Assembly: GCA_040400005.1 (NCBI GenBank)
Contig: JBBARC010000007.1
Span: 17,744 to 81,743 of the forward strand
Reading direction: 5' to 3'
DNA from: Acetobacteraceae bacterium
Lineage (GTDB): Bacteria > Pseudomonadota > Alphaproteobacteria > Acetobacterales > Acetobacteraceae
Length of the DNA stretch: 64,000 bases
The notes beneath the pieces were generated by a model. It was not told the DNA's origin and ran no database searches. It saw only the letters and a program-made list of their open reading frames with translations. A program made the position numbers and the translations under genes. This document shows positions 36,917-42,280 of this stretch, in pieces; the stretch's first letter is position 1; each line of letters begins with the position of its first letter.

Positions 36917-38134
36917 TTAGCCGGGAAAAATCGTGCCGCTCAGCGCGTCAAGCGCCTGAATCCCCGGCAGCACTTTGCCCTCCAGCCACTCCAAAAACGC
37001 ACCGCCCGCGGTTGAAACGTAACTCATGTCGTCCATCACGCCGGCCGCCTTCAGGGCCGCCACCGTATCGCCGCCACCCGCCACACTGCGCAAATGCCCG
37101 GCCTTTGTCAGCCTGGCCACCGCATGGGCAAGCTGCACGGTCGCTGCATCAAACGGCTTGGTTTCAAACGCCCCCAGCGGTCCGTTCCACACCAGCGTGC
37201 GCAAGCCCGGCAACGCCGCAATCACCGCCGCCACACTGGCCGGCCCAACGTCCAAAATCATTGCGTTATTAGGCACGGCATCAATATCCACCACGTGGGT
37301 TGCCGCATGTTCACGAAACTCAGTGGCGGTTACCGCATCAATCGGCAGCATAATCTGGCAGCCACAGGCTTTGGCGCGCGCCAAAATATCGCGCGCGATA
37401 TCGTGCATGTCGGCTTCTTGTAACGATTTACCAACCGCCACACCCTGGGCCGCCAAAAACGTATTGGCCATCGCACCACCAATCACCAGCACATCCACGC
37501 GGCCGACCAAATTACCCAGCAATTCCAGCTTGGTGGACACTTTCGCACCGCCCACAATGGCGCCCACTGGGCGATCCGGGTTATCCAACGCCGCCGTCAG
37601 GGCCTCCAACTCCGCCTGCATCAACCGCCCCGCCAGCGACGGCAGCAATCGGGCAACCCCTTCGGTGCTGGCATGCGCCCGGTGCGCAGTGGAAAACGCA
37701 TCATTAACATAAATATCAGCAAGCTTGGCCAAGGCCGCTGCCATCTCGGGGTCGTTCGCTTCTTCGCCCTGATGAAACCTGGTGTTTTCCAGCACCAGAA
37801 TTTGGCCCGGCTCTAACGCCGCCACCGCCGCCTCGGCAATGGCACCCACGCAATCATCGGCGAAAAACACGTCGCGCTGCAACACATCGCGCAGCGCCGC
37901 CGAAACCGGGCGCAGCGATAAAGCCGGCACCACCCGGCCACACGGCCGGTCGAAATGGCTTACCACAATCACCCGGGCGCCACGCTCGGCCAATTCCCGA
38001 ATGGTCGGCGATAAGCGCTCCAACCGCGTCACATCGCTAATCGCCCCATCACGCACCGGCACGTTAAGATCTGCGCGCAACAGAACGCGCAAATTTTTAA
38101 CGTCAACATCATCGAGCGTGCGAAAATTGGCCAT
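36917..38134 (-). CDS. pgk: Phosphoglycerate kinase
   Basis: [17 protein letters not shown] and GGGDT motifs; 405 aa. Confidence 0.95.
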
Positions 38135-38226: not shown

Positions 38227-39243
38227 TTACAGGCTGCCGAACAGTGCGGCCGTATCAGACATACGGTTGGAAAAGCCCCATTCATTGTCGTACCAGCCAA
38301 CCACCCGCACCATGGCGCCGCCATCAACGCTGGCAGTTTGGGTGGCGTCAAACGTGCAACTGGCCGGCACGCCGTTAAAATCGCTGCTCACCAGTTTCGC
38401 CGTGTTGTAATCCATAATGCCGGCCAGCGCGCCGGCACTGGCGGCGGCAAATACCGCGTTCACTTCGGCCACACTCGGGTGCTTGGCCAAGTTCACATCC
38501 AGCGACACCACCGATACGTTGGCGGTGGGCACGCGAATGGATGTGCCATCCAGCTTGCCTTTTAGCGTCGGCAACACCAGCCCCACGGCTTTGGCAGCCC
38601 CGGTGCTGGTGGGAATCATGGAAAGGGCAGCGGCGCGCGCGCGGTGCAAATCTTTATGCAGCGTATCCACCGTGCGCTGATCGCCAGTGTAGCTGTGGAT
38701 GGTCACCATATAGCCGCGTTCAATGCCAAACGCATCGTTCAGCACCTGCGCCATGGGGGCTAGGCAGTTGGTGGTGCACGATGCGTTGGAAATGACGGTC
38801 ATATCGGCGGTCAGCACCTGGTGGTTGACGCCATACACGATGGTTGCATCCACCTCATCGGCGGGGGCAGAAATAATCACCCGCTTGGCGCCCGCTTCTA
38901 ACAGGCTAGAGGCGGAGGCTTTGGTGGTGAACAGCCCGGTGCATTCCATCGCCACATCCACCCCGGCCCAGGGCAGTTTTTTGGGGTCGCGCTCGGCGGT
39001 CACTTTTATCGGGCCCCAGCTGCGGTCGCCAATTTTCAGCGTAATGCTGTCGCCATTTACCAGCACCTCGCCGGGGAAGCGGCCGTGCACGCTGTCGTAA
39101 CGTAGCAAATGCGCGTTATCCTCAACGCTGCCCAAATCATTGATCGCCACCGGCACCACGTCGCTACGCCCGCTTTGCACCAGCGCGCGCAGCACCAAAC
39201 GGCCAATGCGGCCAAAACCATTTATAGCGATCGTCACGGCCAT
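38227..39243 (-). CDS. gap: Glyceraldehyde-3-phosphate dehydrogenase
   Basis: INGFGRIGR, SNASCTTNCLAP and WYDNEWGFS motifs. Confidence 0.95.
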   Translation of the reverse strand: MAVTIAINGFGRIGRLVLRALVQSGRSDVVPVAINDLGSVEDNAHLLRYDSVHGRFPGEVLVNGDSITLKIGDRSWGPIKVTAERDPKKLPWAGVDVAMECTGLFTTKASASSLLEAGAKRVIISAPADEVDATIVYGVNHQVLTADMTVISNASCTTNCLAPMAQVLNDAFGIERGYMVTIHSYTGDQRTVDTLHKDLHRARAAALSMIPTSTGAAKAVGLVLPTLKGKLDGTSIRVPTANVSVVSLDVNLAKHPSVAEVNAVFAAASAGALAGIMDYNTAKLVSSDFNGVPASCTFDATQTASVDGGAMVRVVGWYDNEWGFSNRMSDTAALFGSL

Positions 39244-39365
39244 GGGAAAGAAAATCCTCAATACAAGCAGGTCAAACGGCGGGCGCGGAGCCCCAATCGC
39301 GTCTCCCTACTGAAATATTGCCGCACTTGCCAGGGGGCCATGCTTGCGAAAAACCCGGTAACGAG

Positions 39366-41054
39366 TCAGGGCTGGGTTGCCTCGCCATCATCCTTGGGCG
39401 CCAAACCGCGCAAAACCGCCTCGCGCAAGGTTTGCGTATCGGCCAAATTCTGCCCTGCCGGCACCGCCAGAAAATGCCCAGCCGCACCCAGCCACCGCTC
39501 GGCGCCAAAACCGCTGCCGCGTTCAATGGCAAAACGCGGGGCATGGCCCAAAATAGCCGCCTGGGACGCCGCGTCACGCCCGGCAAACAGCTCCCAGCAC
39601 GGCATGGATACCACGCACGTGGGCAAACCCAGCGCATCCAGCTCATCGCCCAAGGCCAGGGCCAGCGCCAATTCGGGGCCGCTGGCAATGAGCGTCAACG
39701 TCCGCTGGTTACCGCCGGCGGCAGGCTCGCGCCTCACGTAGGCCCCGCCGGCGCAGGCGCCGCGCCGGTCCATGGGTGGTAAAATCGCCGCCTCAGCGGA
39801 TAGCAGCAGCACCGACGGCCCGGCCACGTGGCGCAGCGCCAGCGCCAGGCATTCCGCGGTTTCATGCGCATCGGCGGGGCGAAACACGGTTAGCCCCTGC
39901 AAACTGCGCCACGCCGTGCGCTGCCCGCCACTGGGGCAATCCATCCCCGGTTCAATTAATCCCAGCACCATCCGCCAGCCGTTGACCGCGGCCATGCGCA
40001 TGGCCGGGCGCAACGCTTCTGCATCTTCCAGGCTCAGCACGCTTAAGGCCACCACCCCGCCATGCTGGGCCATGCCACCCAACCCCGCCCCCATCGCCTG
40101 AATTTGGCCCTGCCACGGTATCGCCCGGCCCGGGCTTTGCCCCGACATGACCGCTTGGCCCAGCGGTATATCGGCGGTCATGCCGGCAACGTCAGGCAAA
40201 CCTGCTGCCAACGCGGTTAGCTGCAAAACCGCTTCGGTGCTGGGCGCACAGGGGCCAGCCGTGGCCCCGCCGGCCGCCGCCGGCACCGCGTAACGCCCGT
40301 CCATGCTCGCCAAAAACTCCGCCCGCTGCGCATGACGCGCCAGCCGTTTTAGCCACCCGCGCCGCACCGCAGCCCGGCTGCCAGCGCGGCCCCAAGCGGG
40401 CGGCTGATCGCCCAATGGCGCATCGGCCACCGATAAATCTGCGCATAAAATTAAACTCGGCCGCCGCCCGCGCTGGGCGGCCGACACCGCCGATGCCAGC
40501 GCCACCATGCCGGCATCGGGCCGTTTAACCAGCCAGCCGAGGGCTGCGAAAAGGGTCGCTGTTTCCTCGGCGCCGTCCGCTGCCACCAGAACGCACAAGC
40601 GATCCAGTTTTAAACTGCCGGCGAGCGATGCCGCTTCCCGCGCCGTCCCATGGGCAAGGCTTGCAGCATCCCCCACTAGCCAACACGCATGATCCACCAG
40701 CGACCGGCCAAACCGCGCCGCCAGCAGGCGTTCGGCCAAGGCCGCCCCCACGGCAATGCCCAGCATGTGCGCAGGGTTTGCGGTGACCTGTTCGTGCAAG
40801 GGCTGTATGGCGCCGGCCAGGTGCGTAAGCGCGTCGCCCAATGCGGCCGTGCTGCCGGCCAAAAATAACCGGTCGCGGTCGAGCCAGTGCGGGTCGGCGG
40901 GGTCTAGCCGCCATTGCCGTGTAAGCAAATAGGCCAGCGCCGCCGCCGCCGGCCGTAAAATTTTATCGTCAGTGAGGGCTGCCGCCATGGCGGCAATTTC
41001 GTTATCTATCGATGCAGGTGGTGTGCCCAGTGGCGTGACAATGGGCTGGGTCAC
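39366..41054 (-). CDS. Transketolase-like protein with degenerate cofactor and catalytic motifs (putative pseudoenzyme)
   Basis: Collinear with Tkt over its full length and sits in the tkt slot of a tkt-gap-pgk operon. However SNGHG is replaced by AGSTA, GDG by GDA, DDN by AAD and GEDGPTHQ by CPSGGQRT. GTG start overlaps the upstream stop (GTGA). Confidence 0.7.
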   Translation of the reverse strand: MTQPIVTPLGTPPASIDNEIAAMAAALTDDKILRPAAAALAYLLTRQWRLDPADPHWLDRDRLFLAGSTAALGDALTHLAGAIQPLHEQVTANPAHMLGIAVGAALAERLLAARFGRSLVDHACWLVGDAASLAHGTAREAASLAGSLKLDRLCVLVAADGAEETATLFAALGWLVKRPDAGMVALASAVSAAQRGRRPSLILCADLSVADAPLGDQPPAWGRAGSRAAVRRGWLKRLARHAQRAEFLASMDGRYAVPAAAGGATAGPCAPSTEAVLQLTALAAGLPDVAGMTADIPLGQAVMSGQSPGRAIPWQGQIQAMGAGLGGMAQHGGVVALSVLSLEDAEALRPAMRMAAVNGWRMVLGLIEPGMDCPSGGQRTAWRSLQGLTVFRPADAHETAECLALALRHVAGPSVLLLSAEAAILPPMDRRGACAGGAYVRREPAAGGNQRTLTLIASGPELALALALGDELDALGLPTCVVSMPCWELFAGRDAASQAAILGHAPRFAIERGSGFGAERWLGAAGHFLAVPAGQNLADTQTLREAVLRGLAPKDDGEATQP

Positions 41055-41758
41055 GCGATGGTAATGCTTAAGGGTGCATCGCCCAAGCCGATAAACAGCC
41101 GGGGTATGGCATTATCCAAGCCGCTATCATCCAGCGCCCGCGGCAGCACGATATCGGCAATCGGCCCCCCGCCGGCAGCGCGTAGAGCGGCGATAATGCC
41201 GGGGTCGGCTGCCAGCGGTGCCAGCGTCCAGGTGCTGGCCACGGTTAACTGTGTGGCCGCGTCGCGCGCGACAAAACCTGCCTCGCGCGGAAATTGCGCC
41301 GCCAGCCGCGCCAATTCGGTGGCCGATAGGTGATCAAACCATAGGGTGACACTGGCTTCATCAGGAATCGTCCCGGCTTGGGCGGCGCCAAAATTCACCT
41401 CGGAAACGCCGCTCAGGCAACCCACGCCCCGTGCCCGCGCCATACGGTCGGCCGCGTCAATCAGCCGCGCAACCGTTAACACCGGGTCTTGCCGGGCTGC
41501 GTGCGGGGTGGTTGCGTGGGCGGCCGCGCGGCCTTTTACCAGTAGCCGAAATCCCACCCGGCCGGCGGCAATGGGGGCCACCGCAAGCGCGCCTGGCGCC
41601 ACCAGATCAGGCACCACGGCCGCCACAATAACTAACCCAGCCGGCGCCCCCATGGTGTGGTCACCACCCGGCAAATGGGCCGCCATGGCCGCCGCTGCTG
41701 GCCCGGCCAGGTGAATGCGCCCAGGCGGCGGCACAAAGCCGCCCAATATACCCGTCAT
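41051..41758 (-). CDS. Truncated M20-family (carbamoyl-amino-acid/allantoate amidohydrolase-like) protein lacking the N-terminal metal-binding half
   Basis: LLVKGRAAHATTPHAARQDPVLTVARLI...GVSEVNFGAAQAGTIPDEASVTLWFDH is collinear with the dimerisation-domain region of M20 amidohydrolases. Only 235 aa. Confidence 0.5.
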   Translation of the reverse strand: MTGILGGFVPPPGRIHLAGPAAAAMAAHLPGGDHTMGAPAGLVIVAAVVPDLVAPGALAVAPIAAGRVGFRLLVKGRAAAHATTPHAARQDPVLTVARLIDAADRMARARGVGCLSGVSEVNFGAAQAGTIPDEASVTLWFDHLSATELARLAAQFPREAGFVARDAATQLTVASTWTLAPLAADPGIIAALRAAGGGPIADIVLPRALDDSGLDNAIPRLFIGLGDAPLSITIA

Positions 41759-41839
41759 GGTATTCACAAAAACAGGGCAGGGCAGGGTTTCATTCCCCCA
41801 TCTTGCCGCTGAACGCTGGCTCTGCAACCCTGTATCGTA

Positions 41840-42280
41840 ATGCAAACCCATGCCCGCCGTACCGCACGTTTATTAGCCCCAGCCGTTTTGGCGCTGCTGG
41901 CGGTAGTTTTGGGCGCCTGCCATCTGATCGATCAGCGCGATTTCACCCCTGGCGCCGGAAAAAAACCCCAGCCGCCAGCGGCGCCGTTACCGGCCCCGCC
42001 CGCCCCGGCCCTGGTGACTATCCGGTTTGACACGCCCACCCCGGCCTATGGCATCCCGCTGGCCCGCGCGGTGGCCCGTGCCCTGGCGGTGAAACCTAAT
42101 GTCACTTTCTTAATTGAAGCCGCCACCGCCAACGCCGGCCAAACCCCGGCCGCCATCGCCGCCGGGCAGGATGTCGCCCGCGTGGTGCGCGCCAGTGGTG
42201 CGGCGCGCGGCCAAATCGAACAATCCGTGGCGATCGACCCGGCCCTTACCGCAACCGAAGTCCGCGTGCGCCTGCGCTAG
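41840..42280 (+). CDS. Hypothetical lipoprotein
   Basis: Signal peptide with lipobox LGAC, followed by a Pro/Ala-rich linker. Confidence 0.5.
   Translation: MQTHARRTARLLAPAVLALLAVVLGACHLIDQRDFTPGAGKKPQPPAAPLPAPPAPALVTIRFDTPTPAYGIPLARAVARALAVKPNVTFLIEAATANAGQTPAAIAAGQDVARVVRASGAARGQIEQSVAIDPALTATEVRVRLR

Follow-up and report, generated by a model that had tools for sequence, protein, structure and literature searches.

We report that a gene heading a glycolytic gene cluster in an Acetobacteraceae bacterium most probably encodes a transketolase-derived pseudoenzyme, that is, a maintained but non-catalytic protein. The gene occupies 41054..39366 on the minus strand of the stretch of DNA analyzed here, hereafter the window (64,000 nucleotides; GenBank assembly GCA_040400005.1, contig JBBARC010000007.1, positions 17,744 to 81,743), as a frame of 562 codons with a putative GTG start at 41054. 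A first-pass annotation, made from the letters alone, had described a full-length open frame collinear with transketolase whose catalytic motifs were destroyed, and had proposed a maintained pseudoenzyme rather than a dead gene. Our analysis bears out that proposal. The product combines the homology and fold of an enzyme family with the absence of key residues, and it is under purifying selection with intact frames among its orthologues. The hallmarks of a plain pseudogene were not seen, as the frame carries neither a stop nor a frameshift and the ratio of non-synonymous to synonymous substitution rates (dN/dS) is 0.10.

The collinearity with transketolase was confirmed by both Pfam and phmmer, and the gene runs on the minus strand, which had gone unstated earlier. 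Against solved transketolases, phmmer returned E-values down to 5e-38 in three ordered stretches. Among the Pfam models, Transketolase_N matched with 62 bits, covering profile positions 119-243 of 334 only, Transket_pyr with 27.4 bits, right at the model cut-off, and Transketolase_C_1 (PF22613) with 59.5 bits. The TIGR00232 equivalog model gave 143.2 bits, below its curated cut-off of 682.25. We delineated a remnant of the PP domain, which binds the diphosphate of thiamine diphosphate (ThDP), at 40305..40949 (residues ~36-250), a remnant of the pyrimidine-binding (Pyr) domain at 39780..40247 (residues ~270-425), and the C-terminal domain at 39462..39746 (PF22613, residues ~437-531), all on the minus strand. 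An AlphaFold2 model built with a 43-sequence family alignment (A1) reached a mean predicted local distance difference test score (pLDDT) of 85.4, with 94-96 in the C-terminal domain, and a predicted TM-score (pTM) of 0.89. Confidence was low at the termini and around residues 205-225, 250-270 and 290-310, stretches that coincide with the trimmed regions and with the linker joining the PP and Pyr remnants. The top 50 matches listed by Foldseek against the Protein Data Bank were all transketolases, with TM-scores of 0.72-0.83 normalized to the query. The model thus predicts that the three-domain PP/Pyr/C-terminal transketolase fold is kept, the body of the enzyme being intact and its catalytic machinery gone.

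We scored 19 cofactor, catalytic and substrate positions in the numbering of E. coli TktA, namely H26, H66, H100, D155, G156, E160, D183, N185, I187, H261, R358, S385, E411, F437, Y440, H461, D469, H473 and R520. TktA served for numbering only; the numbering was cross-checked on the canonical transketolase of the same genome, in which 19/19 positions are present. The reference alignment comprised TktA, that canonical transketolase and same-locus copies from 17 other Acetobacteraceae genera, and an alignment of ~140 sequences was made later. The window protein retains 0/19 positions, compared with 17-19/19 in canonical copies. It is also ~100 residues shorter than these copies, as previously estimated, because deletions have removed the stretches surrounding H26, H100, H261 and D469/H473.

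Every motif loss listed in the first-pass annotation was borne out by MAFFT and HMMER alignments. In the PP remnant, GHPG is missing, AGSTA stands in place of SNGHG, and a deletion of ~25 residues takes out the GHPE histidine. The "GDA" that resembles the canonical GDG sits one residue off, a detail missed at first pass, so that Asp155 aligns with Ala; at D155, G156, D183, N185 and I187 the window protein reads A, A, A, D and a gap. Deletion or replacement has also affected the DDN/ISIDG segment, and both His261 and the GDG...N motif are lost. In the Pyr remnant, E411 has become Ile (GQIQAM), F437 Asp, Y440 Ala and H461 Glu; 7 residues are deleted, GEDGPTHQ reads EPGMDCPSGG, and the THDS...GEDGPTHQ loop is shortened to a family motif, EPxxxCPxxGxR. 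The C-terminal domain carries the conserved blocks VVSxPCWxLFA and APRxxxExGSGFGxERWLG. The possibility that the catalytic residues were merely misaligned was rejected, since the HMMER, MAFFT and 140-sequence alignments agree on their loss. From these replacements, we infer that the protein would be unable to work as a ThDP enzyme and is inactive. Of the features that define a working transketolase at the sequence level, only the fold is left, and the protein does not belong under EC 2.2.1.1.

A lost active site in an open frame leaves the question of whether selection still acts on the gene. Its closest orthologue, retrieved by database searching, is 93% identical at the protein level and is encoded on a 4-kb metagenome contig from ENA (L028), which shares 88% DNA identity with the window over 4 kb. 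Over 540 aligned codons, dN was 0.037 and dS 0.36, giving the dN/dS of 0.10, with 125.5 synonymous changes over 437 sites and 43.5 non-synonymous changes over 1183 sites (Fisher p=2e-42). The sole indel within the gene is 12 nt long, in frame and close to the C-terminus. As yardsticks, catalytically intact same-locus copies from other genera gave 0.06-0.21 at dS 0.14-0.45, gap gave 0.04-0.25, and a class I/II aminotransferase gene upstream, compared between the window and L028, gave 0.04-0.05. Among other lineages with degraded copies, the Acidisoma group gave 0.13-0.15 and a further pair 0.28; across the relatives examined, orthologous frames are open and none is broken. The dead transketolase is therefore constrained as strongly as active enzymes, and because its dN/dS matches theirs a plain pseudogene is ruled out. 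Selection for a mere open frame, for instance to avoid polarity on gap-pgk, is likewise ruled out, because dN/dS would then be near 1.

The positions under constraint were mapped by comparing 87 canonical same-locus copies with 96 dead sequences. In 135 columns, conservation among the canonical copies has given way to variation or deletion in the dead set, and all 19 scored positions fall among these; the positions of the GDG-X(about 26)-N motif are as unconserved across the dead family as they are degraded in the window protein. A further 105 columns are conserved in canonical and dead sequences alike; across the ~96 dead sequences, whose overall identity is only ~40%, these columns still show conservation of at least 85%. 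The shared blocks include DAADPxWPDRDR, AERxLAARFGxSLVDHRxW, RRxWLKRLxxH, VFRPADxxE and VVSLPCWxLFA. Only 7 columns are conserved in the dead set alone; six of them are listed, comprising three K-to-R, one T-to-S and one A-to-G change and the change of His461 to Glu, which falls within the shortened EPxxPCPxxGxR loop and is found in >85% of dead forms. With so few newly conserved columns, nothing points to a new active site. Selection keeps a subset of ancestral, non-catalytic features across all three domains.

The window protein belongs to a large family. We define a dead form as one of 480-600 residues retaining 0-2/19 positions, and an intermediate as one retaining 3-16/19. Dead forms account for about 75 of the best 120 database clusters, and intermediates make up a further set. 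In Acetobacteraceae, the dead kind numbers roughly 100 database proteins and loci, all with open frames and nearly all followed by gap-pgk; in a scan of species-representative genomes, the hosts were Acetobacteraceae, mostly metagenome-assembled genomes, and those that are named include Endosaccharibacter trunci and an Acidisoma sp. In ~100 Acetobacteraceae loci, the order tkt(-like), gap, pgk is maintained irrespective of the state of the leading gene (canonical, intermediate or dead), and the frame is uninterrupted in every dead or intermediate locus examined.

The degraded copies are accompanied by an intact enzyme. The genome of the window (3.27 Mb in 85 contigs, 95% complete) carries a canonical tkt at about C11:45892-47850, scoring 901.8 bits against TIGR00232. 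It stands alone beside typA/bipA, outside any pentose-phosphate operon, and belongs to a different transketolase lineage, 28% identical to the window protein. Further relatives in this genome are a split transketolase-like N/C pair and a DXS-like gene (G000:C54:17876-19089, G000:C6:8177-8740). We then drew an even sample of 151 Acetobacteraceae genomes from 118 genera. Profile A1 failed to separate dead from canonical forms, as canonical same-locus copies score 530-580 bits with it, and the 20 suspect loci were instead scored motif by motif. A canonical tkt above the TIGR00232 cut-off is present in 148 of the 151 genomes, and a degenerate copy occupies the locus in at least 24. In 23 of these 24, a separate canonical tkt scoring >780 bits lies elsewhere; the one exception is a 92%-complete genome whose locus copy is an intermediate.

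That exceptional locus (L112, G094:C2:895024-896727) retains 8/19 positions. It keeps GDG...N and Glu411 and is without all catalytic histidines, R358, S385 and R520, and no transketolase in its genome reaches the TIGR00232 cut-off. Either a tkt is missing from the assembly, or this stripped form is still functional. Better-preserved intermediates with 10-13/19 positions (P0118, P0053, P0056, P0093, P0105 and P0108; loci L032, L083, L097 and L121) keep the ThDP-binding motif and Glu411 and have lost several substrate-binding residues. These are candidates for altered-specificity ThDP enzymes or for early stages of decay.

We examined the history of the degenerate forms with two trees; L108, L117 and L128, along with two fragments (L017 and L021), were left out of tree building as unreliable open reading frame (ORF) picks. 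In a FastTree phylogeny of the proteins, the degenerate forms branch together, in comb-like fashion, from within the canonical lineage of the locus. A tree of gap+pgk, short and only partly resolved, served as a rough host tree. Here, the window falls within a clade of 22 rows (Shimodaira-Hasegawa-like approximate likelihood ratio support, SH-aLRT, 94), of which 21 are dead copies and one is an intermediate, so the dead copy dates to the ancestor of this clade and was kept through its diversification. Elsewhere, hosts of dead or intermediate copies are interspersed with hosts of canonical ones, and at least 9 changes are needed on this tree, 2 of them forced by well-supported branches. The single origin suggested by the protein tree was rejected, as an approximately unbiased (AU) test on gap+pgk excluded a topology uniting all 43 degenerate-copy hosts in one clade (p=0.001). 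Long-branch attraction may be partly responsible for the grouping seen in the protein tree. Degeneration thus appears to have occurred on more than one occasion in Acetobacteraceae, and the number of events is uncertain because the host tree is short and only partly resolved.

These observations suggest the following course of events. The gene would have originated as the canonical transketolase heading the tkt-gap-pgk cluster of Acetobacteraceae. Once a second, canonical tkt was present, the locus copy would have lost ThDP binding and the cofactor-activating Glu, together with all of its substrate-binding His, Asp and Arg residues, and ~100 residues of active-site loops would have been trimmed. 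The three-domain core and the 105 ancestral positions remain, under purifying selection of the strength seen in active enzymes. Most likely, the folded body now has a binding, scaffolding or regulatory role without catalysis, in a protein made alongside glyceraldehyde-3-phosphate dehydrogenase (GAPDH) and phosphoglycerate kinase (PGK). This role would probably continue one that the ancestral enzyme already had, because the constraint falls on ancestral positions and because loss of catalysis with retention of the body recurs.

Several points weigh against this interpretation. A scaffolding or regulatory role for the dead transketolase is a guess. The within-genus dN/dS comes from one pair only, the window and L028, and more distant dead pairs gave 0.3-0.45, where dS is near saturation. 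G+C at the first and second codon positions (GC1 and GC2) is 0.73 and 0.57 in the dead transketolase and 0.59 and 0.47 in gap, and Ala makes up 21% of its residues; values raised in this way relative to gap/pgk suggest long-term or past relaxation of constraint, and are typical of proteins with such a history in GC-rich genomes. Finally, 20 of the 151 sampled genomes are without any gene of this lineage, and the role must therefore be dispensable in some lineages.

Of the alternatives, the one that survives best is that the protein is an unavoidable passenger, expressed at the head of the gap-pgk operon and selected only to be soluble and harmless. We consider this improbable. It would account for the conserved place upstream of the essential gap-pgk, for the lack of any sigma-70-like promoter seen between the dead transketolase and gap, and for the scarcity of newly conserved positions, as what is retained is the core of the ancestral fold. 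The purifying selection measured, however, is as strong as in active enzymes, and stronger than avoidance of misfolding alone predicts. Deletion is also evidently possible, since ~100 residues have been removed in frame and the gene is gone from some lineages. Moreover, blocks such as RRxWLKRLxRH are invariant, an argument that assumes these blocks to be exposed at the surface.

A slow decay of a redundant gene, useless since the arrival of the second tkt and still open only through high G+C and short time, appears very unlikely. Its expectations are partly in evidence: a canonical tkt elsewhere in the genome, a comb-like protein tree leading from intermediates with 10-13/19 positions through progressive deletions to fully dead forms, the raised GC1, GC2 and Ala content, and the 20 genomes without the gene. 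It is nevertheless largely refuted by the dN/dS of 0.10 (p about 1e-42) without a frameshift. In a deep gap+pgk clade, all but one of the 22 rows share the dead state, with all frames open, and the 105 ancestral columns have kept their conservation. From base composition at the G+C of the window, we estimate the probability of an open 562-codon frame by chance at ~5e-6.

We give equally little credence to the protein still being an enzyme, whether with a new, ThDP-independent activity or with ThDP bound in a non-canonical manner: the strong purifying selection, the family-specific EPxxPCPxxGxR loop in place of THDS...GEDGPTHQ and the His461-to-Glu change in that loop would fit such an activity, but five of the six listed dead-only changes are conservative, no cluster of new polar residues is present, the family has lost, and shows no conservation at, the GDG...N motif, Glu411 and the aromatic pyrimidine pocket, and removal of 38 active-site residues from human TKT by engineering abolishes both ThDP binding and activity (PMC3485151). 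A chance ORF, like a pseudogene, was rejected by the homology, the dN/dS and the open frames in orthologues.

Returning to the maintained pseudoenzyme, a bolder corollary concerns its active relatives. The cluster-heading transketolase of Acetobacteraceae might have a second, undescribed non-catalytic function, for example as a partner of GAPDH or PGK or at the junction of the pentose-phosphate pathway and glycolysis, although we regard this as rather doubtful. With the same reserve, that second function would be what the dead forms reveal, in that lineages repeatedly and independently strip the active site once another tkt makes catalysis redundant, and keep the body. If true, the dead forms would amount to a natural separation-of-function series for a moonlighting transketolase.

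The surroundings of the gene were assigned as follows. As had been proposed, it lies directly upstream of gap and pgk, on their strand, which Pfam matches downstream confirmed. The next gene, gap, encodes glyceraldehyde-3-phosphate dehydrogenase at 39261..38227 (minus; Gp_dh_N/C, E 1e-31 and 1e-61), with a likely ATG start at 39243, and is followed by the third gene of the cluster, pgk, encoding phosphoglycerate kinase at 38134..36917 (minus; Pfam PGK, E 5e-145). The dead transketolase is probably co-transcribed with gap and pgk, and its product made together with GAPDH and PGK. Upstream, at 41051..41851 (minus), a half-length gene resembling M20 amidohydrolases ends in a stop codon that overlaps the GTG of the dead transketolase. 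The GTGA overlap noted in the first-pass annotation is present in the window and kept in L028; the GTG start read from it stands less firmly, because an ATG at 40988 (codon 23) is an alternative, and the gene caller chose the equivalent ATG on the L028 contig. Translational coupling, which the overlap would imply if the GTG is used, is thus tentative.

The half-length M20-like frame has 266 codons and resembles only the C-terminal half of M20 allantoate/carbamoyl-amino-acid amidohydrolases, its NCBIfam matches spanning only positions ~205-350 of 400-430. Between the window and L028, it shows a dN/dS of 0.21 at 85% amino acid identity, and this gene, too, appears to be an enzyme homologue that is maintained in truncated form. 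It was rejected as a general partner of the dead transketolase, as it lies upstream of one group of dead copies only (L012/L120), in addition to canonical copies. M20-like matches upstream of same-locus tkt genes were found at L012, L020, L027, L042, L052, L059, L082, L091 and L120, so a full-length M20 gene is possibly ancestral at this position. Divergent from and upstream of the same-locus tkt, an ORF of 146 residues (41840-42280, plus strand) without a Pfam match is conserved at 31-48% identity in at least 14 Acetobacteraceae loci, and its dN/dS between the window and L028 is 0.22-0.24.

Pseudoenzymes are well documented in eukaryotic signaling and poorly charted in bacterial central metabolism. 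The family described here occupies one of the most conserved glycolytic gene clusters and is as constrained as its active relatives. A full-text literature search returned no report of dead transketolases in bacteria or in Acetobacteraceae, and the sources that name proteins of the dead family label them "transketolase". It appears, then, that a large and old pseudoenzyme family derived from a textbook ThDP enzyme has gone unreported. The label is also an annotation error, through which automated metabolic reconstructions of Acetobacteraceae or of metagenome bins would count a pentose-phosphate enzyme that is absent. This is harmless where a second tkt exists, and misleading for copy number, pathway inference and incomplete bins.

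Set beside the canonical TktA-type transketolase (TIGR00232, EC 2.2.1.1), the window protein shares its ancestry, genomic position, three-domain fold and 105 conserved columns; it differs in having 0/19 ligands, ~100 deleted loop residues and a score of 143 bits against a cut-off of 682, far from the 902 bits of the intact copy in its own genome. In concept, it belongs with dead paralogues that partner active enzymes, such as the AdoMetDC prozyme of Trypanosoma (PMC5201418), and with pseudoenzymes generally (PMC5106787). Like the window protein, these have an enzyme fold without catalytic residues and are retained by selection beside an active paralogue. Prozymes, however, pair with the active enzyme, and for the window protein a heterodimer with the active transketolase of the genome is less likely because that enzyme is of a different lineage and only 28% identical.

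The closest parallel in kind is human TKTL1, which is likewise a paralogue found beside an active TKT and bears a deletion in the N-terminal PP domain that removes active-site residues. An engineered TKT with the TKTL1-type deletion of 38 residues (TKT-delta38) is folded, binds no ThDP and has no activity (PMC3485151), and the lack of activity of TKTL1 itself is still disputed (PMC6334435). The window family differs from TKTL1 in having arisen independently, in bacteria, within Acetobacteraceae, and in the extent of the loss: TKTL1 carries one deletion of 38 residues, whereas the window protein has lost every PP- and Pyr-domain motif. The dead family thereby offers a clean genetic route to non-catalytic roles of transketolase, a question that human TKTL1 also poses.

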